Source: a virus
Lineage: Duplodnaviria > Heunggongvirae > Uroviricota > Caudoviricetes
IMG/VR virus record: IMGVR_UViG_2740892036_000005
Span: 1 to 11,596 of that record
DNA length: 11,596 nt
Direction: 5' to 3' (one strand)
Under the pieces are notes generated by a model. That model saw only the letters and a list, made by a program, of their open reading frames with translations, was not told the DNA's origin and did no database searches. Shown here in pieces: positions 1-11,596 of the stretch. Position 1 is the stretch's first letter. Every line of letters starts with the position of its first letter. A program made the translations under genes and the position numbers.

Positions 1-340
1 GATTAGCTTCTTCCAATAATTAAAATTTTACCAAGCGTTTATGCCTTACAATATGTATTGTATCTCACCGTAAAACATATTTATATGGTTTTAAACCTAT
101 CTGTAAATCTTGACACCTTGGCAAGAACCTAATCCTACATTTTAATATCAATCTATATAATATAGCCAGTGTCATAATAATCGGGCTTGTCATAGTTAAG
201 TATTCTCCTCCGATATCCCAATGAGATAAGCAAGTCATCAGTGTTATAAATGAAAAGATCACATTTTTCAAAGAGTTATTATGATGAAATATTATTCAAA
301 ACGCAATGTAGCTGAAACGAGTCTGAGTTTAACATCCGCT
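1..340. other. AT-rich non-coding flank (module boundary)
   Basis: Base composition drops abruptly to strongly AT-rich compared with the GC-rich tail genes to the right. All three plus frames and all three minus frames have stop codons within the first ~65 nt, so no gene can enter from the left edge with meaningful coding length. The only ORFs are short, hydrophobic/AT-biased and lack a Shine-Dalgarno sequence. A TATAAT hexamer is at 156..161 and TTGACA at 110..115, but the spacing is not canonical. Confidence 0.5.
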
Positions 341-537
341 CCTAGTACATAGCAGTCCTAGGGACAGTGGCATAAAGTCTTAGATGGTCGGTGGGAGGTG
401 GTGGAAATCCCCTCATGCAAAAAACACATAAAATCGATAACAGCTGGAAATCATTCAATACTCGCACTATTGAAAGTTCACCAGCCAGCCGCAGCACGTT
501 CCTGCATACGACGTGTCTGCGGCATATCACAAAACGA

Positions 538-720
538 TTACTCCATAACAGGGACAGCAGGCCACTCAATATCCGGTGCAGTTGATGTATCAACACGGTT
601 CAGCAACACCCGATACTTTTTCCATGCGGCCAGTAACGCTTTCTCTTCCTCCGTTGCGATTTCCAGCTCAACAACAGTCTGAACGTACCGGGAACAGCCT
701 CCTTCAGAGCTTGAAGGATA
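538..720 (-). pseudogene. tfa: 3' remnant of tail fibre assembly gene (tfa), no start codon
   Basis: Manual translation of the minus strand immediately after the stf stop (TGA, 721..723), in the same frame, gives 60 sense codons ending in TAA (538..540): [60 protein letters not shown]. The last ~43 residues (about 541..670) match, from memory, the conserved C-terminus of lambda/Rac/e14-type Tfa proteins (the ...[22 protein letters not shown]... motif). There is no ATG/GTG/TTG start with an RBS and the N-terminal ~150 codons of a normal tfa are absent. The ORF track does not list it because it has no start. Confidence 0.55.
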
Positions 721-3700
721 TCAATGTTCGCTTCCTGTTAACTGCCGGACAAGTGCAACCAGTTCGCTTACCTGATTTTCCAGAGTGCTGATCCGGGTGT
801 CTGCTGTTGCCAGATTTTCACGTAGCGTTGTGTTTTCCTCTTCCAGCGCGGTAACGCGATCATCTGTTTCACGGGCGACCTGAACAAGTAAACCCGTCAC
901 GGCGGCGTAGTCAACATTAAGATAGCGCGTTTCTTCGCGTAGCTCGTTGCCGTCAACGGTCGGGCCTTGCAACTCTTCACCGTAATGGATGAATGAACCA
1001 ACGGCCTCCGGGATGGCCTCTTCAACTTCCTGGGCTATAACCCCGGCGCAATGTGCCCCATTCTCCTTGAGCGTGTACGTGTATCCATTAATTTTGCGGA
1101 TTGCGTCAGTCGCGTTATCGATAATCTCGATATTTTCTTTCAGTCTGCGGTCTGATGACTGATTCAGTGTGGTGCAGTTAACACTTCCGTTTACAGTAAG
1201 GTTTTGCCCGTCTGTTGTTTTTTGCGCATAAAACAGATACGCAGCAGACGTGCCAACCTCAAAAACGTTTTGTCGAGTACTGGAACCCCACACCCTGACA
1301 GAAAACGGTAGTTCTGCATTACCTGAGTTCTGTAAAACAAAACGATTACCAGTCCCTGATTGCTTTGTAAGGGTTAAATCAACGGTTGAGTTAACCTCAT
1401 TCCTGTTGATAGTGAGCGCCTGCGCTGTAGCCCCGTTAACAGCACCTGTTTTGAGTTGAACCGCGCCGTCATTACCATTTAACAGTATCTCAGCTCCGCT
1501 AAAGAAATTTTTTAGCGACAGCATCTTACTTACGCCGACTGATGAACCCAACGCCCACGCGAGAGAATTACCGGTGCTATCAAACCCACGTACAAAGCAA
1601 TCCATTTTGCTATAGTCTGACGTGCTTCCAAGGACATCAATCCGCCCTCCGCCAGATTTTACCGGACTAGATGTGGTTAACGACCTGACAGTTATATCCT
1701 GATTCCATCCGGAAACAACAACCTGACTCCACGCTGTCCAGTTTCCATTAACAACAAAGCGAACGTATATACGTTTTGTGTCGCTGTTAATCAGCGTTTG
1801 CATGTTCGCATAATCTGAATCCCTAACCTTACGAGTCGATTCAACACGGAGCAAAAAGTTACCTGTTACGCCGTCAGGCTTGTTGGTGATATTTGCACCA
1901 CCTGCAGAGGATGGACAAATATAGTATTTAACTGCCCCGGCATCTGACTTGATGATGGTCAGGTTGTTAAGATTAACCGTCTGGCCGTCAATGTTTTCCG
2001 GCTCGATGGCTCCTGCTATCCCGGCACTGAACGTAGCAACGGCTGAAAACGCTGTCGTACCTTTGAAAGCCAGTTGACCACCAATCGTTAATCCCTTGTC
2101 GAGTTTCGCTTGCGTGATCAATTTGCTGTTTTGTTTCTGATCAGGACTCTCACCAAAAGCCAGATCCCCATTAGTATCAATTCCAAGATACTTTGGGTTC
2201 ACGTTGTCTAACTTAAACCCAATGGACACATTTTCAGAAGAACCAGAACGCGTTAAAACTAACGGCGTGTGCTGTACTCCATAGATGCTTAGCGTAGTTG
2301 CCGATGAGCCAGTGTCGGTATTTGCAATCTCAATCGTTCTGCTTTTAATTTTATACGCTACTGTGAGATCACGGACTTCAACCCTCCCGTCGTGACGAAC
2401 AACAAGATCCCCTCCTGATGTCCCCCCTGCTGTCTTTGCCCTGATGCGAACTTCGCCAAGCGAATCAGTGTTAGGACCAGCATAGATTATGCCGCGCTCT
2501 GTGTTATCGCCAGTATAAAACCGCAAAGCGGTGACTCCACTGTCTGCCCGCAGGAAGACTGACGGTGTACCTTTTTTGATTGTCAAGTCACCGGTCATTG
2601 TATCGCCGGTTTTTTTTACCTGCGCATCGTTCGTTACGTTGCCAAGTCCAACATCCGATTTCGACGGCTTGTTTGCCGAGCCGTATAGCTCATTGATGCT
2701 AAAAGTCCCGTTGTTAAGCCGGGCATCGTTGCCGGCATAGATCTTAATCTTCGCGGTTGAGTAGTCGATATTGATCGCTGACCACGTATCGCCGCACCGC
2801 GAGAATATACCAGAACCGTGGCTATAAATGGTCGCCGTGCTTCCGGTCGGCTTATCACCGCGCCAGAAATGACCACCTTTGTCACGCAGAGCTTTTAAGA
2901 TCTCTACATCGCTCATCTTGCCGTTTGTTGATATCCCGCTACCGCCAAGACCGAAAGCGCCTGTAAGCATAGCATTAGAAAGACCCAAATCTGCTTTAGT
3001 CGGCTTGTTTAACTGGTCGTAAATCCTTACAACGGGGCTTTCAACATATCCAGAAGGCGCGGCGGTTTGCTTAACAAATCCGTCTGGAATGTATAATTCC
3101 GTGCGTGCCGTCTGCGCCAGTACCGCAACCTTTGCGCCGTTGATAAATGCACGCTGGAAGGCCCAAACCTCAATAAAGCCATCATCTTTAACCAGGCCGT
3201 AACGCATTTGCATGCTATTGATTAGCCCGGTTGGCCCTAAACGGCGTATACTCAGGTAACGAGATACATTATCAGCAGTAAGCGAAGAAGGCAGACCGCG
3301 CGCCGAGATCTCGATAAAGTCAATGTTTCCGTAAGGGGAGCCGTAGTCACCGCCGTTAGTAACCATTAGCGTTACATGGCAATTGTTGCTTCCGGGATCG
3401 GAAAGTTTCGCGATCTTTATGTAAAAAGACTCATTACCAGTAACAACGGGCCAATCGTATTGCGTCATCGGGCTGACGAGTCCCCCGACCTTGTCGAGAT
3501 ATTCTTTCGCCTTGTTCTCTGACGCTTTAGCGTTGGTTTCGCTGACCTTTGCTGCTGACTCACTATTTTTCGCGTTGGTTTCTGATTTTTTGGCTGCTGT
3601 CGCGGAATTTGCCGATGCAGTTTGTGAGTCTGCTGCCGCCTGTGCGCTGTTATCCGCATTCATCTCAGACGTTTTTGCGGCCTTCGCGGAATTTCCTGCC

Positions 3701-4497
3701 GCCGTTGCCGAGGAAGCTGCACTGCCGGCGCTCGAGGCTGCGCTCGTTTCTGATGATTTTGCCGCCACTTTTGAAGCCGACGCATCCCGGGCTGAGGTGG
3801 CAGCTTCTGACGCTTTCGTGGTCGCGGTGGATGCAGAAGTGGCCGCAGATTTTTGTGATGCTGCGGCATTCGTTTCTGACGTTTTCGCTGCACCGGCACT
3901 GGTGGCTGCCGCGCTTTTTGAAGACTCTGCAGCGGCAGCACTTTTTGATGCTTCAGTAGCCTTTGCTGATGCCGTTCCTGCGCTGGAAGACGCTGACTGA
4001 GCCGACGACGCGGCCTGTCCGGCTGACGTGCTGGCTGCGCGTGCTGAGTCTGCAGCATCAGTCGCATGGGTTGCCGCCTCACGGGCAGATGTGCCGGCAT
4101 CGCTGGCTGACTTCTTTGCGGCTGCCGTGTTCTGTGCCACTGCGGACGCGTTACGCGCCACCTCTTCCACCATCAGCTCAAAACGGCGCAGTGCCTCCGG
4201 ACGGGCATCATCCTCCGTCATGGCACCGAGAAAATCATTCAGCGTACCGGGTTGAGAATCTTCATACACGGTGATGGTCCCGGCATGTGACGGCGGGAAT
4301 CCTTCCACCAACAGAATAACGCTGTACTGACCGTACTCAACGTCCATGCTGTAACGCCCGGCTTCATCCGGATTTTCTGAGGCCAGCGTGTTCACCACCA
4401 CCGTGGTGCTGTTACGTTTTGCTTTCAGCTGGATTGTGCAGTTCTGTACCGGTTTTCCTGTGCCGTCTTTCAGTACACCTGAAATCTTTACTGCCAT
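721..4497 (-). CDS. stf: Side tail fibre protein (lambda Stf-like N-terminus, Ala/Ser-rich repeat shaft, distal fibre region, C-terminal S74 intramolecular chaperone)
   Basis: ORF 721..4503 (1260 aa). The likely true start is the ATG at 4495..4497, giving MAVKISGVLKDGTGKPVQNCTIQLKAK..., the N-terminus I recognise from lambda Stf and the StfR/StfQ family; the GTG at 4503 is an upstream in-frame alternative. Stop is TGA at 721..723. The protein contains tail-fibre motifs (KPSKSDVGLGNVTNDAQVKKTGDTMTGDLTI). It follows lom, as stf does in lambda. Confidence 0.88.
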   Translation of the reverse strand: MAVKISGVLKDGTGKPVQNCTIQLKAKRNSTTVVVNTLASENPDEAGRYSMDVEYGQYSVILLVEGFPPSHAGTITVYEDSQPGTLNDFLGAMTEDDARPEALRRFELMVEEVARNASAVAQNTAAAKKSASDAGTSAREAATHATDAADSARAASTSAGQAASSAQSASSSAGTASAKATEASKSAAAAESSKSAAATSAGAAKTSETNAAASQKSAATSASTATTKASEAATSARDASASKVAAKSSETSAASSAGSAASSATAAGNSAKAAKTSEMNADNSAQAAADSQTASANSATAAKKSETNAKNSESAAKVSETNAKASENKAKEYLDKVGGLVSPMTQYDWPVVTGNESFYIKIAKLSDPGSNNCHVTLMVTNGGDYGSPYGNIDFIEISARGLPSSLTADNVSRYLSIRRLGPTGLINSMQMRYGLVKDDGFIEVWAFQRAFINGAKVAVLAQTARTELYIPDGFVKQTAAPSGYVESPVVRIYDQLNKPTKADLGLSNAMLTGAFGLGGSGISTNGKMSDVEILKALRDKGGHFWRGDKPTGSTATIYSHGSGIFSRCGDTWSAINIDYSTAKIKIYAGNDARLNNGTFSINELYGSANKPSKSDVGLGNVTNDAQVKKTGDTMTGDLTIKKGTPSVFLRADSGVTALRFYTGDNTERGIIYAGPNTDSLGEVRIRAKTAGGTSGGDLVVRHDGRVEVRDLTVAYKIKSRTIEIANTDTGSSATTLSIYGVQHTPLVLTRSGSSENVSIGFKLDNVNPKYLGIDTNGDLAFGESPDQKQNSKLITQAKLDKGLTIGGQLAFKGTTAFSAVATFSAGIAGAIEPENIDGQTVNLNNLTIIKSDAGAVKYYICPSSAGGANITNKPDGVTGNFLLRVESTRKVRDSDYANMQTLINSDTKRIYVRFVVNGNWTAWSQVVVSGWNQDITVRSLTTSSPVKSGGGRIDVLGSTSDYSKMDCFVRGFDSTGNSLAWALGSSVGVSKMLSLKNFFSGAEILLNGNDGAVQLKTGAVNGATAQALTINRNEVNSTVDLTLTKQSGTGNRFVLQNSGNAELPFSVRVWGSSTRQNVFEVGTSAAYLFYAQKTTDGQNLTVNGSVNCTTLNQSSDRRLKENIEIIDNATDAIRKINGYTYTLKENGAHCAGVIAQEVEEAIPEAVGSFIHYGEELQGPTVDGNELREETRYLNVDYAAVTGLLVQVARETDDRVTALEEENTTLRENLATADTRISTLENQVSELVALVRQLTGSEH
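724..1152 (-). other. Peptidase S74-type C-terminal intramolecular chaperone domain of the tail fibre (predicted autocleavage at Ser|Asp, codons 1153..1155 | 1150..1152)
   Basis: The last 143 residues are ...NQSS|DRRLKENIEIIDNATDAIRKINGYTYTLKENGAHCAGVIAQEVEEAIPEAVGSF... followed by a heptad-like helical tail. The S-D-x-R-x-K-x-N-I and G-V-I-A-Q-E-V-E-E-x-I-P-E-x-V signatures are characteristic of the self-cleaving chaperone domain of endosialidases and of phage tail fibres/spikes such as T5 pb1 (Pfam Peptidase_S74 family). This is a motif-level call made from memory. Confidence 0.7.
3500..4160 (-). repeat. Degenerate ~42-nt (14-codon) tandem repeat array encoding the Ala/Ser/Thr/Lys-rich fibre shaft
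   Basis: Protein residues ~115-335 of Stf read as 14-aa periodic units (AKTSETNAAASQKS / AATSASTATTKASE / AATSARDASASKVA / AKSSETSAASSAGS ...). The plus-strand DNA shows recurring gtttctga(c/t)g(c/t)ttt(c/t)gc-type units. It also generates a spurious Ala/Phe-rich antisense ORF (3491..4000 plus). Confidence 0.65.
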
Positions 4498-4508
4498 ATT
4501 CACCCCAC

Positions 4509-4535
4509 AAAAAAGCCCGCCTGAACCGGCGGGCT
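4509..4535 (-). terminator. Intrinsic terminator downstream of lom (between lom and stf)
   Basis: On the minus strand: AGCCCGCC-GGUUCA-GGCGGGCU followed by UUUUUU. This is a perfect 8-bp GC-rich stem (plus 4514..4521 pairing with 4528..4535), a 6-nt loop, and a 6-U tract (plus A-run 4509..4514). It lies 26 nt downstream of the lom stop. Confidence 0.65.
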
Positions 4536-4561
4536 GTCATAACACTGTGTTACCTGGCTAA

Positions 4562-5161
4562 TCAGAACTTATAACCGACACCCATGATGAAACCGTCAGT
4601 GCGCCAGTCGCCACTGCCGGAGCCTTCATAAGCAATATCAATGGCCACGGATTCGGTCGGGTTAAACTGCACGCCAGCTCCCCACGCCAGAGACGTGTTG
4701 CTGTGGCGACCGTCATCACTTCCGGTCAGCACATCGTGCGTTTTCCCCTTGTTGTCAGTTACGCGGAGATAATCCCCGGAGAAAGTCGACACACGGCTGT
4801 AAGCCACACCCGCCATCGCATACGCGCTGAACCATTCATTCACGCGCACAGACGGCCCCGCCATCACGCTGAACCAGCGGTTACGCACGGAATCCTCATG
4901 CCAGCGGGTATCGCTGTAATGCGTTTTTTGCTCATCTTCAGCGTTGGCATAACTGAATGACGTAATCAGCCCCAGCGTGTCCGTAAACTCATAACGGTAT
5001 TTCACGTTAATCCCGTTCAGATCATCACTACCGGGAACGTTCGTCGAGGCATGAAGATACCCTGCGCTCAGTGTGGCCTGCTGCTCAGACGCCCATGCAG
5101 GCGCACCGGATACGGCCAGACAGATGGCTGCGGACAAAATGGCTGCACAAACTTTACGCAT
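4562..5161 (-). CDS. lom: Lom-like outer membrane protein (Ail/Lom/PagC/Rck family beta-barrel)
   Basis: 199 aa, ATG at 5159..5161 with a GAGAGG Shine-Dalgarno sequence upstream. It has an N-terminal signal peptide (MRKVCAAILSAAICLAVSGAPAWA|SEQ) and the family C-terminus ...DIAYEGSGSGDWRTDGFIMGVGYKF that I recognise from lambda Lom. Its position between J and stf is the same as in lambda. Confidence 0.9.
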   Translation of the reverse strand: MRKVCAAILSAAICLAVSGAPAWASEQQATLSAGYLHASTNVPGSDDLNGINVKYRYEFTDTLGLITSFSYANAEDEQKTHYSDTRWHEDSVRNRWFSVMAGPSVRVNEWFSAYAMAGVAYSRVSTFSGDYLRVTDNKGKTHDVLTGSDDGRHSNTSLAWGAGVQFNPTESVAIDIAYEGSGSGDWRTDGFIMGVGYKF

Positions 5162-5185
5162 AATTACCTCTCGCTTTTCTGCAAT

Positions 5186-5210
5186 AAAAAAGGCGCCAGA
5201 AATGGCGCCC
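5186..5210 (-). terminator. Intrinsic terminator-like hairpin between J and lom
   Basis: On the minus strand: GGCGCCA-UUUC-UGGCGCC followed by UUUUUU (stem plus 5192..5198 / 5203..5209; U-tract from plus A-run 5186..5191). It starts 19 nt downstream of the J stop and ends 24 nt upstream of the lom ATG. Confidence 0.55.
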
Positions 5211-5228
5211 GCATATGGGTTATAAAAT

Positions 5229-8200
5229 TCAGCTGATACTGATACCTGCTGTGGATTTCTTCATCACCACAACCAGCAAATCACTGATACTGGCTGTGGG
5301 ATACCAGTCATTTACCAGCCACGCTGATACCGAAAACTCCAGCGTCATGTGACCGCGACCAGCAGGCATATCAATAACACCTGTATAAACCAGCGTATTA
5401 TCCAGCGCGGTACGGTTATAAATTTCAGCACCGTTTTTCTTCACCATCAGGCGGCATGACGAATAAATATCGTTATTCTCCCGCTCATGTTTAGCGCCAC
5501 GAAACGCCACCGCGGGAATAACAATCTGCCGGTCAAACGGCTGATCGTCATAAACCCTGACGGTAATGGTCCCTGATGGCCACCGCTCCGGTGCACGGGA
5601 GTCCCGGGGGAAAGCTTTGCCCACTGTTTTAACGAGATCGCCTTCAATCTGGTTCGCAGACAGTTTTCCCAGAACCCGACAGTTCTCGTTAATCGTGACG
5701 TTGTTGAGCGTCCCGGAGTTCGCATTCACGTTACCGCTGATATCGGCATTTTTCGCCGTCAGCCGCCCGTCCGGTGTCAGGGAAAATACCGGAGGATTAC
5801 CGCCGCTGGTAATGGTGGGAGCCGTCAGGCGTTTCAGGAACACTTCGTTCATGAATATCTGATCGCCCTGACCAACAAACATCGGCTTTGTGTTGCCATT
5901 CGCAGGATTAATCATCGCAATCCTGTCTGCCGCCAGCAGCACCTGACTCTGCATGCCGTCAGGGGTGTTCTCAATACCGGCACCAATACCCGCGATATAA
6001 AGGCGTCCGTCCTGCATCTGCTGCAGCTTCACAGCCCACATGCTGTTCAGGTTATTATTTGTATCAACCTGAACCTTCTGTATCTGCTGAATTGCCGCAC
6101 TCTGGTCTTCCAGTTTCTTATTGACGGTCTGTGTGATTTCATTGCTGACATCCGTAATGGATGTCCTGATTTCAGCCAGGTCAGGCGCAAGCTGACCGTT
6201 ATCAATCTGCGTCCACAGCTCCTGAGCCAGATGGGTTTTCCCTATCTCGCCTTTGAAAAAATCCAGATAGCCGGATGCGTCATCACTCGGCTGACCAACA
6301 GCCTCCACGAATGCCGATTTGCCAACGGTGTTCACACTGCGAACGTAAAAATAATAATTATGGCCCGGCCTGATATTGATACTGGCGGCTATCCAGTACA
6401 GCGCCGTGCCAAGATAGCGTGCTGTGGTTTCAACCTGCCTGATATCCGCAATCCGCTTTTCCGAGAACCAGAACTCAAACTGTACCGTCGGATCATAAAC
6501 CGCAAGATGCGGCGTGGCGGTTATCTGAAAATAGCCCGGCGTCAGCTCAATCCGCGACGGCGCTGCCGGTGCGGCAATCCGGAACGATACCGACGCCGGA
6601 TCGCCCTGCTGTCCCCACGCATTTACCGCCCGGACTGTCAGCCTGTAGTTTCCCAGCGCCAGCTGCGTGAAGCGGTATGTGGTTTCCGTCGTCCTGGCTG
6701 TGCTGACCAGCCGCTCACTGCCGTCATCCGCTGTCACGGTCAGACGGAGCAGGAAGCTCACGCCCTTCACCACCTTCGGTGTGTCCCAGCGCGCCAGAAC
6801 CTGATATTCCCCGCTGTCTGCGGTGACTTCGGCGGTCAGGTGCTGCACCGCTGGCGGCGTGACACCATTCACCGTGCCGCTCTGGTCGCCGTCAAAGTGC
6901 GCCCCGTTATCCACGATGGCCTCTTTTTCCGGTACATGCTGCACGGCGGTGATGGCATACGTACCGTCATCGTTCTCACGGATACTCACACAGCGGAACA
7001 GGCGCTGGCGCAGCGTCGGCAGCTTCAGCCCCCACACGCTGTATTCGGCAACGCCGTCAGGAACACGGCTCACTTTCACCTTCACGCCGTCGGTGACGGA
7101 CTGGACCTCCACGCTGACCGGATTGCCATTTCCGTCAACCAGGCTTATCAGCGTGGTTCCGGAGGATGGCAGCATGATTTCACGGTCGAGCGTCAGTGTC
7201 CGGGTCTGGCTGTTTACCGCAAGCACGCGCCCGCCGACGCTGATACCCGCATAGTCATCATCGCAGATTTCAATGACATCGCCCGGTACATGGCGAAGCC
7301 CTTCTGCGCCCACGCTGAAGTCCACAGTCTGCGTTTCCAGCAGCTCCGTTTTAATCAGCCACAGCCCGGCGCGGTGTGCCTGCCCCCGGCTGGTACAGCC
7401 AAAGGCATCCATCTTCGTGACGTTACGACCGTAACGGGCAATGGCCTGCGTGTCCTCCACAAGCTCTGTTGCCGTCTCCCAGCCGTTGTCCGGGTCAATC
7501 CAGTTCACCTCAACGGCATTATGGCGGTCCTTCAGGGCGCTGAAGCTGTAGCGGAACGGCGCGTCATCATCCGGCATCACCACATTACTGCGGTTATAGG
7601 TCCACACCTTATCCGACGGTCGGTCCTGCACGAACGTCAGCGTCTGCCCGTTCCATACCGGCATACAGCGCATCGCCGAGCAGAAATCACTGAGCACATC
7701 CCACGCCTTTCGCTGTGTGGTCAGGTAGGCATTACAGGTGATGCGCGGCTCCGTGCCGCCAAAACCGTCCGGCACCGACTGGTCGCAATACTGGCCGATG
7801 ACATACAGCGCCCATTTGTCCACATCCGCCGCACCAAGACGTTTCCCCATGCCGTAGCGCGGGTGGGTCAGCATATCCCACAGACACCAGGCCGGGTTGT
7901 TGCTGTATGCCGGCTTAAACGTTCCGTCCCAGATACCGCTGTATTGCCGCGTCTGCGGGTTATAGTTCGACGGCACCTGCAGAATGCGCCCGCGAAGATG
8001 ATAATTACGGCTCACCTGCTGGCTGCCGAACTGCTCCGAGTCCACCTGCACGCCGACCAGTGCCGTGTTCGGGTAGCACTGTTTCACATCGATGATTTCG
8101 GTGTATGACGACCAGAGCGTTTTGTTCTGCAGCTGGTCTGTGGTGCTGTCCGGCGTCATCCTGCGCATCCGGATATTAAACGGGCGCGGCGGCAGGCTAC

Positions 8201-8708
8201 CCACCACCACCGAGGCCAGATACTGCGAGGTGGTTTTGCCCTTAATGGTGATGTCTTTTTCCGTCACCCAGCCACCATTACGCTGTATCTGAACCAGCAG
8301 GCGGACTTCCGACGGATTCCGGTCCCCCTTTGAGGTGGTTTCCACCAGTGCCTGTACACCGAAGGTAAAGCGCAGACGGTCGATGTTTGCCGACGTAATG
8401 GTGCGGGTGATCGGCGTGTCATATTTCACTTCCGTACCCAGCACCGTCTCGGAGCCGGAGGATTCAAATCCCTCCGGCGGTGACTGCTCCTGCTCACCTG
8501 CCCGGAACACCACCGTGACGCCGGATATATTGGTATTCCCCTCACTGTCCAGCACCGGCGTACTGTTCAGCAGCACGCTTTTTAATCCATCCACCGGACC
8601 TTCAATCGGCCCTTCGCTGATGGCATCAATCACACTCAGCAGCTGCGTGGATTTCAGGTTGTCCTTCGCTTCGCGCGGGGTATGCCCCTTACTGCTGCCT
8701 TTACCCAT
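5229..8708 (-). CDS. J: Tail tip / central tail fibre host-specificity protein J, with a divergent C-terminal receptor-binding region
   Basis: 1159 aa, ATG at 8706..8708 with GGAG upstream, stop TGA at 5229..5231. The N-terminus [54 protein letters not shown]... and roughly the first 800 residues read as lambda J. The last ~350 residues (about 5232..6290) are recognisably homologous but substantially diverged, and the protein is ~27 aa longer than lambda J (1132 aa). Confidence 0.95.
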
Positions 8709-8721
8709 TCGTCATGCTCCA

Positions 8722-8750
8722 TAAACGATAAAACCGCCCGGAGGCGGTTT
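8722..8750 (-). terminator. Hairpin plus U-rich tract between I and J (weak terminator or RNA-stability element)
   Basis: On the minus strand: AAACCGCC-UCCG-GGCGGUUU followed by UAUCGUUUAU (stem plus 8731..8738 / 8743..8750). The U-tract is interrupted, so this is weaker than the two hairpins flanking lom. Confidence 0.4.
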
Positions 8751-8768
8751 CACATAAAACGTTTTTCA

Positions 8769-9410
8769 TCAGCGACCAATCACCACAACCTGACCACCAT
8801 CACCTTCATCTGCTGTGCTGATCTCCTGAGATACCACACGTGATCCCACGCGCATTTCACCGTACAGAACGGGCAGAACATTGCCCTGGGCAACCATATT
8901 ATCCAGTGAAGAAAAATAGGTGTTCTGTTTGCCGTTATCCGTTGTCTGTGTGCGGGGGGTTTTGGGTTTAGGGGCCAGCATCTGTGCAACACCGCCAAGC
9001 GTCATACTGGCACCGAGAGAAAACAGCAGATTACTCGCCATAATTCCTACCCCCGGCATCCATATAGCAACCGCCATAACAGCCGCCCCCAGCACAGCCT
9101 GAAACACACCGCCACTTTTGGCTCCTGCCAGACGCGGCACGATATGGATCACAGCACCATTTGCCAGCGGTTCATTAAGACGGGCTGATAATTCCGTTTC
9201 ACCTGTATCACGCCCGGCAATGCGTACCTGATACCAGCCGTCGCTCAGCTTCTGACGAAACGCCGGGATCTGCATGGCCAGCGCCCGGATGGCTTCGGCC
9301 CCCGTTTTCACACGCAGATCGATGCGGCGGCCAAATCGTTGTAAATCCCCGTAAAGGCAGATGCGTGCCATGCCTGGTGACGCCAGAGGGAGTGTGTGCG
9401 TCGCTGCCAT
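8769..9410 (-). CDS. I: Tail assembly protein I
   Basis: 213 aa beginning MAATHTLPLASPGMARICLYGDLQRFGRRIDLRVKTGAEAIRALA... and ending ...MVAQGNVLPVLYGEMRVGSRVVSQEISTADEGDGGQVVVIGR, which I recognise as lambda gpI. The ATG at 9408..9410 lies inside the 3' end of K in another frame. The SD spacing is poor, so the start could instead be the internal Met-14. Confidence 0.88.
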   Translation of the reverse strand: MAATHTLPLASPGMARICLYGDLQRFGRRIDLRVKTGAEAIRALAMQIPAFRQKLSDGWYQVRIAGRDTGETELSARLNEPLANGAVIHIVPRLAGAKSGGVFQAVLGAAVMAVAIWMPGVGIMASNLLFSLGASMTLGGVAQMLAPKPKTPRTQTTDNGKQNTYFSSLDNMVAQGNVLPVLYGEMRVGSRVVSQEISTADEGDGGQVVVIGR

Positions 9411-10051
9411 TTGTCGGTATACCTCTCTCGTTTGCTCAGTTGTTCAGGAATATGGTGCAGCAGCTCGCCGTCACCACAGTAAATGGCGGCATGATTCGGC
9501 ACCGATGAACCAAAACAGCACAGCAGCACATCGCCCGGCTGCGCCGCTGACAACGGCACCTGATACAGCCCTGTGGCCTCCAGATTATCCAGATAGAGAT
9601 TCTGACCTGATTTCCACCAGTCATCATGTCGGTAAAAATCCGGCAAATCGATACCTGCAAGATGATAGGCATCGCGGAACAGCGTATAACAGTCCGTCAC
9701 CCCGTGCTCAAAGCGCCGCCCGGTGAGATGCGGCACACAGCGGAACTTGTGAATCGCCCCCCGGCAGACCAGCCACCACGGCAAATCACTCTGCACCTGC
9801 AGCCGCCGGTCAGCCTCACTCAGCCAGGGCAGACCACCGGGATGACTGTGGACCAGTGCCACAATCTCACCCTGCATCTCTGCCTGCAGCCAGTCCTCCG
9901 GAGCCATCCGGAAATAATCCTCCGGCTCACCGGAGATATTCACGCAGGGAAAATATCGTTCCCCCTCCGGCGCTCTCACCACGAAGCCGCACGACTCCGC
10001 TGGCGCACATCGCCGGGCGTGCGCCAGAATCGCTGATTCTGTCTCTGTCAT
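9308..10051 (-). CDS. K: Tail assembly protein K (MPN/JAMM domain plus NlpC/P60 domain)
   Basis: 247 aa, ATG at 10049..10051, 5 nt after the L stop. It contains a JAMM-type motif HSHPGGLPWLSEAD (H-x-H-x7-S-x2-D) and a C-terminal NlpC/P60-like region (VTDCYTLF ... NHAAIY). The sequence matches lambda gpK over the region the classical annotation covers; this ORF includes an N-terminal extension that completes the MPN fold. Confidence 0.88.
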   Translation of the reverse strand: MTETESAILAHARRCAPAESCGFVVRAPEGERYFPCVNISGEPEDYFRMAPEDWLQAEMQGEIVALVHSHPGGLPWLSEADRRLQVQSDLPWWLVCRGAIHKFRCVPHLTGRRFEHGVTDCYTLFRDAYHLAGIDLPDFYRHDDWWKSGQNLYLDNLEATGLYQVPLSAAQPGDVLLCCFGSSVPNHAAIYCGDGELLHHIPEQLSKRERYTDKWQRRTHSLWRHQAWHASAFTGIYNDLAAASICV

Positions 10052-10056
10052 GGGAT

Positions 10057-10755
10057 TTACTGCGAAAGTTTGTTAATGGAAAGGAAGCCGCCAAAGTTGC
10101 CGACGTTATTGCGAAACTTACAGCCGCTCAGGCATTTGCTGCATTTATCCTTCGTGATATCGGACGTTGGCTGGTCATATTCATCCGCGACAGCCGGACC
10201 GTGATAACCGCACTCATCACCGCGATAGGTCCAGGTGCAGGTGTTGGCCAGCATGATACGTCCCGGAAAAACAGCGCCGTCCGTTTCCGTCGGCGTGGAC
10301 AGTACAAAGGAGGCACTCACCGCGCTCAGTTCGCTGCACTGCTCGATGCGCCAGCGGCTGATCACCTCCTGCTCCGGATCGGCGTCACTGTTTCCGTTGA
10401 CGAAGTTCACCGCATCCAGAAAACGGGCGTAAACCTTACGCCGGACCACCGTTCCGCCGACCAGACTCTGCAGATCTTCCGCCATCCCGGTGACCATACC
10501 GTACAGGTTAGAAACCGTCAGCGTGGGGCGCGTACTGGTGCCTTTGCCATTCAGTTCAAAACCGCTCCCCTGAATGGGATACGGCTGATACTGTCGCCCC
10601 TGCCAGGTGACCGGCTCACCTTTTTCGTTCTGCTCATTACAGAAAAAATAACGTTCTCCACCGACCTCTGTCAGGTCGATTTCCCAGAGCACCACGCTGG
10701 CCGACTGCTCCGCACGGGTGCATTCATTCAGTGTTTCCTGCCGGATATCCTGCAT
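10057..10755 (-). CDS. L: Tail tip assembly protein L
   Basis: 232 aa, MQDIRQETLNECTRAEQSASVVLWEIDLTEVGGERYFFCNEQNEKGEPVTWQGRQYQPYPIQGSGFELNGKG..., recognised as lambda gpL. The ATG at 10753..10755 overlaps the M stop (TGATG). Confidence 0.93.
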   Translation of the reverse strand: MQDIRQETLNECTRAEQSASVVLWEIDLTEVGGERYFFCNEQNEKGEPVTWQGRQYQPYPIQGSGFELNGKGTSTRPTLTVSNLYGMVTGMAEDLQSLVGGTVVRRKVYARFLDAVNFVNGNSDADPEQEVISRWRIEQCSELSAVSASFVLSTPTETDGAVFPGRIMLANTCTWTYRGDECGYHGPAVADEYDQPTSDITKDKCSKCLSGCKFRNNVGNFGGFLSINKLSQ

Positions 10756-11084
10756 CAGTTCACCACCTGTTCAAACTCTGCGCTGAACTCAACACGCAGC
10801 ATACTGACCCGCGACGACCATTTTGCGCAGGTCACCTTTATCTGCCGCCACTCATAAGGCGGCGTCCACAGAAAGGCTTTCCAGCCCCCGTGCTCTTCCA
10901 GAAACGACTCCAGTACCGTGGCCTCCCAACGGGGGACAGAAAGCGTCACGCTGTACGTTTTCAGGTTGGCATTCAGCCCGGCAGGCGCTCGCTGGGAATA
11001 GCCATCACCAAAGCGCACCTTTCTTACAGAAGGGGCCGAAGCCACATCCATACCGGGTTTCACTTTCCAGCGGAAGGTTTTCAT
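10755..11084 (-). CDS. M: Tail tip assembly protein M
   Basis: 109 aa, MKTFRWKVKPGMDVASAPSVRKVRFGDGYSQRAPAGLNANLKTYSVTLSVP..., recognised as lambda gpM. The ATG at 11082..11084 overlaps the H stop (ATGA). Confidence 0.93.
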   Translation of the reverse strand: MKTFRWKVKPGMDVASAPSVRKVRFGDGYSQRAPAGLNANLKTYSVTLSVPRWEATVLESFLEEHGGWKAFLWTPPYEWRQIKVTCAKWSSRVSMLRVEFSAEFEQVVN

Positions 11085-11596
11085 CGTCCACCTCCGGAGA
11101 ACAGGCCACCATCACGCATCTGTGTCTGAATTTCATCACGGGCACCCTTGCGGGCCATGTCATACACCGCCTTCAGAGCAGCCGGACCTATCTGCCCGTT
11201 CGTGCCGTCGTTGTTAATCACCACATGGTTATTCTGCTCAAACGTCCCGGACGCCTGCGACCGGCTGTCAGCCAGACTGCCCGGTGTACCGACATAACCA
11301 CCGGTGGCATAGCCGCGCATCAGCCGGTAGAGATTCCCCACGCCAATCCGGCTGGTTGCCTCCTTAGTGAAGACAAATTCACCACGGTGAACAATCCCCG
11401 CTGGCTCATATTTGCCGCCGGTTCCCGTAAACCCTCCGGTCGCAAAATGGAATTTCGCCGCAGCTGCCTGAATGGCTGTACCGCCTGACGCGGATGCGCC
11501 GCCACCAACAGCCCCGCCAATGGCGCTGCCGATACTCCCGACAATCCCCACCATTGCCTGCTTAAGCAGAATTTCTGTCATCATGGACAGCACGGA
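11081..11596 (-). CDS. H: Tail tape measure protein H, C-terminal portion (gene continues beyond the right edge)
   Basis: The reading frame is open to the window edge (codon 11594..11596 is in frame). The C-terminal sequence ...TEILLKQAMVGIVGSIGSAIGGAVGGGASASGG...GGKYEPAGIVHRGEFVFTKEATSRIGVGNLYRLMRGYATGGYVG...QMRDGGLFSGGGR is the Gly-rich C-terminus I recognise from lambda gpH. Stop is TGA at 11081..11083. Confidence 0.9.
   Translation of the reverse strand, partial: SVLSMMTEILLKQAMVGIVGSIGSAIGGAVGGGASASGGTAIQAAAAKFHFATGGFTGTGGKYEPAGIVHRGEFVFTKEATSRIGVGNLYRLMRGYATGGYVGTPGSLADSRSQASGTFEQNNHVVINNDGTNGQIGPAALKAVYDMARKGARDEIQTQMRDGGLFSGGGR

Follow-up and report, generated by a model that had tools for sequence, protein, structure and literature searches.

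Organization of the locus

The window, by which we mean the whole stretch of 11,596 nucleotides analyzed here (positions 1 to 11,596 of the IMG/VR virus record IMGVR_UViG_2740892036_000005), carries on its minus strand the side tail fibre gene stf and, directly behind it, a start-less 3' piece of the tail fibre assembly gene tfa. The genes in this part of the window are all oriented along the minus strand. The features of this region, together with the other classes of tfa remnants described below, are summarized in Table 1.

Table 1. Features around the 3' end of stf in the window, and classes of tfa remnants with other junctions; the junction points of these other classes are approximate tfa codons counted from alignments.
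Feature	Position in window	Strand	Description
Conserved stem-loop	489..522	(-)	CCGCAGACACGT...ACGTGCTGCGG; just 3' of the tfa stop; ~34 nt with a ~12-bp stem; travels with the tfa 3' end
Native tfa stop TAA	538..540	(-)	same place as the stop of lambda tfa
tfa 3' remnant	541..683	(-)	start-less; corresponds to lambda tfa codons 147-194 (conserved Tfa C-terminal domain); blastn, Pfam, tblastn
Junction filler, ~43 nt	684..726	(-)	apparent filler: last stf codon CAT, TGA stop and 37 nt including the start-less AAGGAGG at 704..698
stf (side tail fibre)	721..4497	(-)	likely start ATG at 4497 (the PGAP start); TGA at 723..721
Peptidase_S74 intramolecular-chaperone region of stf	724..1155	(-)	aa 1117-1260, from the S-D-R-R-L-K motif; Pfam
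Remnant class AVY/ATEEE...			junction at ~tfa codon 153
Remnant class ...VLVV/EAWKKY			junction at ~tfa codon 161
Remnant class MLPQHSD...FYIQEF/SEHIAPLQD			~88 aa, own ATG; K-12 TfaX, phrog_2341
Remnant class IWNIK/WNGTAW			junction at ~tfa codon 108
Further remnant copies			with nonsense mutations

In the ORF list, stf was open from a GTG at 4503 (721..4503, 1260 aa), and residues 3-136 of its product matched the Pfam family phage_tail_N (E = 1e-71), which is the N-terminus of lambda-type Stf; the 5' 1 kb of the gene was 87% identical to lambda stf. Translation of the minus strand (window 900..340) revealed the end of stf, VALVRQLTGSEH followed by a stop codon, and then a 60-codon open run. 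As an earlier note on this DNA had proposed, the TGA of stf was followed in the same frame by 60 sense codons (720..541), which ended at the TAA. Stop-to-stop runs of at least 60 codons made up 6.9% of all those in the window; an open frame of this length is in itself weak evidence, and it is homology that decides.

In the source genome, the 4.4-kb AVAST type 2 anti-phage gene avs2 lies directly downstream of the remnant (locus L001 in our numbering, 7101-11555), just past position 1 of the window, and the AT-rich window positions 1-340 are the upstream region of avs2. The same arrangement was found in the E. coli genomes EC25 and Ryan-0026. This gene thus represents defence cargo at the position of the lambda b-region, after the fibre genes.

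Identity of the tfa remnant

The Pfam profile Caudo_TAP (PF02413) matched the 60-aa translation with E = 4e-21 and 76 bits (cut-off 22.1), residues 13-57 being aligned with positions 86-130 of the 131 positions of the profile, and the PHROG tail-fibre-assembly families matched it with E values of 3e-18 to 2e-14, exclusively by their C-terminal ends. In a tblastn search of the phage collection, every match to an intact Tfa started at query residue 13; residues 1-12 had no match in any Tfa, either in this search or in the comparison with lambda. At the nucleotide level, blastn aligned window 683..489 with lambda 22412..22606 (88% identity, E = 2e-67), a span that comprises tfa codons 147-194, the stop codon and 49 nt downstream, and the remnant itself was likewise 88% identical to lambda 22412-22557. 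The similarity to Tfa that the earlier note had anticipated was therefore found in both protein searches, and the alignment with lambda tfa placed the homology boundary at window 683.

These results also refined the extent of the remnant. The earlier note had recognized the C-terminus of Tfa in the final ~43 residues; the string was exact, and Pfam, PHROG and blastn all agreed with the assignment, but the homology proved to be longer, covering 48 residues (13-60). The part of tfa presumed lost had been put at the N-terminal two-thirds, whereas three quarters are missing, since only the equivalent of lambda Tfa 147-194 has been kept. In particular, the N-terminal fibre-binding domain was missing in both the Pfam and the lambda comparisons, and the two-domain architecture of Tfa is thus absent from the remnant.

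The remnant had further been described as having neither a start codon nor a ribosome-binding site. No in-frame ATG, GTG or TTG was present ahead of codon 38 of the 60-codon frame, codon 38 being the first of this kind, so that the former statement held up to this codon; the latter had to be corrected, as a Shine-Dalgarno-like AAGGAGG is located at 704..698, although no start codon follows it in range. Judged by a start codon combined with a ribosome-binding site, the remnant is not an expressible gene for Tfa. The plus-strand and other small ORFs overlapping 345-791 gave no Pfam match.

The S74-type tip of Stf

Peptidase_S74 (PF13884) was detected at residues 1117-1168 of the 1260 residues of Stf with E = 2.5e-16 and a score of 60.2 bits against a gathering cut-off of 22, and the SDRRLK sequence at residues 1117-1122, which conforms to the S-D-x-x-x-K pattern, was aligned with LNVSSDRRIKKDI (SDRRIK) of PDB 6f45, a solved long-tail-fibre tip. 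The C-terminus of Stf coincided with the ends of the S74 fibres of MagusPhagus, the mEp01x phages and T5-like, Seuratvirus and rV5-like phages, as well as with the last position of phrog_6578. The stf stop is thus at the C-terminus native to this family, which places the remnant beyond the fibre gene.

The Ser and Lys of the S-D-x-x-x-K pattern are, as we take from the endosialidase literature, presumably the catalytic dyad of S74. S74 fibres such as the K1F endosialidase and T5 pb1 need no separate chaperone for folding and trimerisation, after which they cleave off the S74 domain. Considering this family biology, we infer that Tfa became dispensable behind the self-chaperoning S74 tip. The viable phages mEp460, Ayreon and PhiR70_1 possess this S74 fibre with only the tfa remnant behind it, and no tfa was annotated in the surrounding ~4 kb of mEp460 and Ayreon; these phages are consistent with a Tfa-independent assembly and lend it indirect support.

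The window and the mEp460 stf region shared the 5' part (window 5246-3524, 94%) and the S74 end with the remnant (1691-423, 87%), while the central ~1.8 kb of stf (window 1692-3523) was not common to them. The S74-type stf is itself a three-part mosaic, and this central ~1.8 kb is presumably the receptor determinant. As for its annotation, the stf ORF is intact (1260 codons; L001 2604-6380), yet PGAP splits it into a 435-bp N-terminal 'pseudogene' and a C-terminal CDS of 268 aa, which leaves ~2.5 kb without annotation. Similar splits were seen in other genomes, whereas a full-length gene is annotated in mEp460 and Ayreon.

Structure of the junction and replacement of the fibre module

Comparison with lambda revealed that window 4689-3656 is colinear with lambda 19458-20491, a stretch that begins in the last part of lom and takes in ~280 codons from the start of stf. 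There follow 2.97 kb without a match and then window 683-489, the tfa 3' end. We also compared mEp460 with its relative mEp460_ev081, in which stf is intact and both a 191-aa tfa and a Ser recombinase are present. The two had J, lom and the 5' end of stf in common and differed over 2.7-2.8 kb, after which the homology restarted exactly at codon 147 of the mEp460_ev081 tfa, 37 nt past the stf stop of mEp460.

On the left of the junction, the nucleotide homology to the S74 gene of MagusPhagus ended at the GAA at 729..727, and that to other S74 fibres ended at ~727-729. After this GAA, MagusPhagus has AAA-TAA and an unrelated terminator, whereas the window has CAT-TGA and 37 nt. As far as can be judged from these alignments, the junction is composed of the S74 gene end, a filler of ~43 nt (726..684) that contains the present stop codon, and tfa from codon 147 onward. 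The filler showed no homology to MagusPhagus beyond the GAA or to tfa genes, and a tblastn search of phages with its alternative-frame peptide returned the same junction alone. Furthermore, scanning the GTDB species representatives for an exact pattern yielded 0 matches, and blastn of a 45-nt stretch of the filler against all complete E. coli genomes found junction copies only.

According to the earlier note, a fibre module carrying its own chaperone had replaced the stf 3' end plus most of tfa, with the crossover inside tfa and the breakpoint at ~670..720. Each element of this interpretation was supported: the tip of Stf is of the S74 type, both flanks are shared with lambda and mEp460_ev081, in which stf and tfa are intact and only the module differs, the homology restarts at tfa codon 147 in either comparison, and the Tfa homology begins at 683, within the proposed range. 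At the level of sequence comparison, the replacement of the module can thus be regarded as demonstrated.

Distribution and existing annotation

A 251-nt junction probe, which reaches ~34 nt into the remnant, was found at an identity of at least 95% in 803 of 5426 complete E. coli genomes (~15%), at 1436 places and with no more than 5 per genome, and 806 of the 812 records with this stf end covered at least 80% of the probe. The filler alone identified the same genome set (805 E. coli genomes) and was found in no other context. The same junction was present in phages mEp460, Ayreon and PhiR70_1. It therefore is not private to this prophage but a single old junction that has since spread.

The window was 100% identical to E. 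coli EcPF20 (NZ_CP071441.1), where PGAP/RefSeq annotates window 538..672 as the pseudogene J1F34_RS19485 ('tail fiber assembly protein; incomplete; missing N-terminus'). An identical pseudogene annotation was found in EC25 and Ryan-0026, and both NCBI and UniRef already list 60-aa entries under the name 'tail fiber assembly protein, partial'. The earlier contention that the remnant cannot appear in a start-dependent ORF track is at odds with the pseudogene called by PGAP in the identical RefSeq record. Thus, the fragment is already known and annotated as a tfa pseudogene, is common in E. coli, and is not a new kind of thing; our search of the literature found no prior description of this exact junction.

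Sequence variation of the remnant

Besides the window, 55 copies were examined, from 50 IMG/VR loci and from four records of phages and genomes. Across them, hardly any variation was found in the filler and in the first ~10 codons of the remnant, while the distal part of the remnant comprised many tfa 3' alleles (...AVPVME, EEPDTM, TNPVRE, ALP, VAPIG and others), several of which were also present in the sampled intact tfa genes. Such mosaic distal alleles behind an invariant junction are the pattern expected from homologous recombination with other tfa copies, which would account for them, and crossovers inside tfa have been observed experimentally in lambda x Rac crosses (PMC3945230).

Three polymorphisms were found in the filler (S/P, R/W and G/S), all of them non-synonymous in the stf/tfa frame. 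One remnant copy (L016) was frameshifted, and E>G, E>K, P>L (mEp460) and P>T changes occurred in remnant copies at residues nearly or fully invariant in 72 intact Tfa, these singleton changes at otherwise invariant residues being used qualitatively only; W>stop, W>R and W>L were seen in other remnant classes. The private variants of remnant class A relative to the 72 intact tfa genes amounted to N27:S10, a ratio inflated by tfa alleles outside the exact-match sample. The remnant was open in ~49 of the 50 sampled copies, which is more intact than naive neutral decay suggests. This openness can be explained by the short length of the remnant together with repeated distal replacement from intact tfa, although weak selection would fit it as well, and the variation as a whole is consistent with neutrality, though not proof of it.

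In the more than 50 copies, all three polymorphisms of the filler (window 684-720) fell on third positions and were synonymous in the +1 frame. A hidden +1 coding frame in the filler was considered and rejected: it has no usable start and gave no homologue in tblastn against phages, and three events of this kind were attributed to chance.

Other tfa remnants

Scanning for the conserved motif of the tfa 3' end yielded 72 intact tfa genes, 43 copies of the present junction and 39 short remnants with other junctions (Table 1). Among tfa alleles, the nucleotide conservation was concentrated in the 3' region. According to the summary of North et al. (2019) in PMC9608196, what has been kept is the conserved helical domain at the C-terminus of Tfa, and what has been lost is its variable fibre-binding domain. 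Two other Peptidase_S74 fibres, as well as a 109-aa ORF, were located ahead of the AVYATEEE class. This second junction class stands behind different S74 fibres, so that the 5' part of tfa has been lost more than once behind a fibre with its own chaperone.

Many prophages contained two tfa 3' ends ~1 kb apart (L010, L038, L067, L076, L078, L096 and L100), and the same paired ends were found in L104, L110, L118, L124, L138 and L158 and in K-12 (L168 10876-11061). The second of the two, a TfaX-type ORF of 88-89 aa, starts at an ATG of its own, carries a foreign N-terminus, MLPQHSDIEIAWYASIQQEPNGWKTVTTQFYIQEF, that is joined on at ~tfa codon 139, and matches phrog_2341; it might be a real small protein with a Tfa trimerisation domain. 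Between other S74-type fibres and tfa remnants, a conserved ORF of 109-112 aa (...YGAIAGCTFFIAREHTQAEYRWIEMFGHGK...) was located (L080 5879-6205; L120 reverse complement 10585-10924), for which no Pfam match was obtained. In addition, L167 (IMGVR_UViG_2908572912_000001, ~3570-3950 of the reverse complement) proved to be a deletion derivative in which the whole of stf is gone and lom, after its first ~56 codons (...DLNGINVKY), runs in frame straight into the filler and remnant (PSSPEGGCSWYVQTVAELEIAT...).

The downstream stem-loop and IS009 matches

The stem-loop at 489-522 followed almost every tfa copy, whether intact or truncated, and one compensatory variant of it (AACGT/ACGTT) was seen. 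As it is not followed by a T-run, it is not a canonical intrinsic terminator. In lambda, two direct copies of the stem-loop flank ea47 (22571-22606 and 24161-24196; L003 3672-3707 and 5262-5297), and the window has one copy followed by homology to lambda 24161-24348, which indicates that the ea47 segment between the repeats is absent relative to lambda.

In K-12 MG1655, the Rfam family IS009 was matched at 581856-582054 (L168 9857-10055) with 227.8 bits, and these positions are the last ~200 nt of the tfaD CDS. Because this match lies within tfaD, the IS009 matches in prophages resemble tfa 3' ends and not an RNA gene of their own, and they should be read as tfa 3' sequence.

Proposed origin of the locus

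Taken together, the window at 538-720 is very probably an untranslated, decaying tfa relic at the scar of a fibre-module replacement. In the course of events that we propose, an ancestral lambdoid prophage exchanged the last two thirds of its stf, together with codons 1-146 of tfa, for an incoming fibre module, the Peptidase_S74 chaperone at the end of which would have made a separate Tfa superfluous. The right-hand join would be an illegitimate junction, in which the native S74 end is followed by the ~43-nt filler supplying the TGA, and tfa sets in thereafter at codon 147. From this one origin, the junction subsequently reached many E. coli prophages and phages, most likely by homologous recombination through conserved flanks, with the stf 5' end or the S74 domain serving as the left arm and the tfa 3' end with its stem-loop as the right arm; this route we infer from the published lambda x Rac crosses. 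The in-frame position of the remnant after the stf stop is best read as being without functional meaning, that is, as a 1-in-3 coincidence fixed with the junction.

A readthrough or recoding of the TGA, by which Stf would be extended by the C-terminal trimerisation domain of Tfa, could be envisaged from the fact that stf and the remnant share one frame and have no more than 12 codons between them, the kept piece being the conserved Tfa C-terminal domain thought to drive trimerisation (PMC9608196). The frame match, however, has a chance of 1 in 3 and was fixed along with a junction of single origin, and the three polymorphisms of the linker, including R>W, are all non-synonymous, which is not the constraint that readthrough would impose. 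Moreover, one copy is frameshifted (L016) and another has lost the whole of stf, the homologous S74 fibres stop at the same residue with nothing downstream, and no recoding signal was seen. The S74 domain is cleaved off after folding, as known for the family, and an extension would therefore be discarded with it. A stop-excluding pattern scan for variants without the TGA gave the same loci and one stf-deletion derivative but no sense-codon variant. We accordingly regard readthrough as exceedingly improbable, and the 60-codon open frame should be called neither a gene nor a readthrough extension. It is also highly improbable that the region functions as RNA, be it an IS009-type small RNA or a 3'-UTR element stabilising or terminating the late transcript. 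IS009 (RF02111) did match window 581-781 on the minus strand (E = 1e-18), and the tfa stop is followed at a distance of 15 nt by a conserved stem-loop, in which one compensatory change was seen; the IS009 score, however, was 81.5 bits against a gathering threshold of 117, the half of the model that aligned well was the unpaired one, which corresponds to tfa coding sequence, and the alignment was poor at paired positions, with non-canonical pairs flagged. In addition, the fold of 538-723 was no better than those of shuffles (MFE z = -0.11), no terminator-like site was found in the region, and the stem-loop lies outside the remnant and is also found 3' of intact tfa genes. The small RNA reading by way of Rfam IS009 was rejected on account of the sub-threshold score and the K-12 family match within the tfaD CDS.

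An unlikely but not negligible alternative is that the tfa 3' end and the stem-loop act as a portable homology arm that lets fibre cassettes swap between lambdoid prophages; cassettes with such an arm would spread, and selection would act on the module and not on the host phage. The same last 80-190 nt of tfa are kept in at least five independent junction classes, two of them behind S74 fibres; the distal alleles of the remnant are mosaic and the junction fixed; the carriers differ downstream (Avs2 in the window, DinI and an integrase in mEp460, other genes in Ayreon); and lambda x Rac recombinants cross over in tfa (PMC3945230). Such an arm, however, would be a consequence at the population level, plausible as such and fully compatible with the relic, the same data fit a survivorship bias, and the S74 domain itself could be the right-hand arm. 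It is a longer shot that the last ~130 nt of tfa with the stem-loop would form a selected, portable right-hand boundary of lambdoid fibre cassettes, acting as a recombination arm, as a late-operon 3'-end RNA element, or as both. If true, such a boundary element would explain why at least five independent truncations stop short of it, as well as the open and near-identical state of the sequence in hundreds of prophages that no longer need Tfa.

The decaying relic records a textbook case of modular tail-fibre exchange, in which a self-chaperoning S74 tip took the place of a Tfa-dependent one, and adds little beyond bookkeeping; it also reveals the conserved tfa 3' end as a recurrent mosaic boundary. 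For the engineering of lambda-type Stf chimeras, the S74 domain together with the remnant could be used as a natural and widely shared right-hand junction.

Comparison with known systems

The pseudogene J1F34_RS19485 called by PGAP in EcPF20 is the same DNA, but it marks 45 codons, whereas the homology goes on for another 11 nt, as far as 683, and the open frame reaches 720. The Rfam family IS009 (RF02111) has ~100 nt of tfa 3' sequence in common with the window, whose score was under the gathering threshold. Residues 147-194 of lambda Tfa (orf-194) correspond to residues 13-60 of the open frame with 81-83% amino acid and 88% nucleotide identity, at the same place after stf, and the lambda stf-tfa region has the same downstream stem-loop as the window. 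In contrast to lambda Tfa, the remnant lacks codons 1-146 with the fibre-binding N-terminal domain, a start codon and a ribosome-binding site that could serve it, and the tip of its partner fibre is unrelated. The tfaX gene of the K-12 prophage DLP12 (b0563) and the TfaX-like ORFs of 88-89 aa (phrog_2341) likewise retain only the C-terminal region of Tfa downstream of a fibre/tfa locus; they differ in their own ATG, a foreign N-terminus of 35 aa and a junction at ~tfa codon 139, and the K-12 copy ends at a premature stop.

Phages mEp460, Ayreon and PhiR70_1 have the same stf 3' end, filler and junction as the window, but differ from it in the central fibre segment, the distal alleles (WLEEPNTM in mEp460) and the downstream genes, the remnant being unannotated there. 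As for the tip, the K1F endosialidase, T5 pb1 and the MagusPhagus fibre all end in a C-terminal S74 with the Ser...Lys motif, as does the Stf of the window; unlike in these fibres, the S74 domain of the window is grafted on a lambda-type Stf N-terminus and has a tfa relic behind it.
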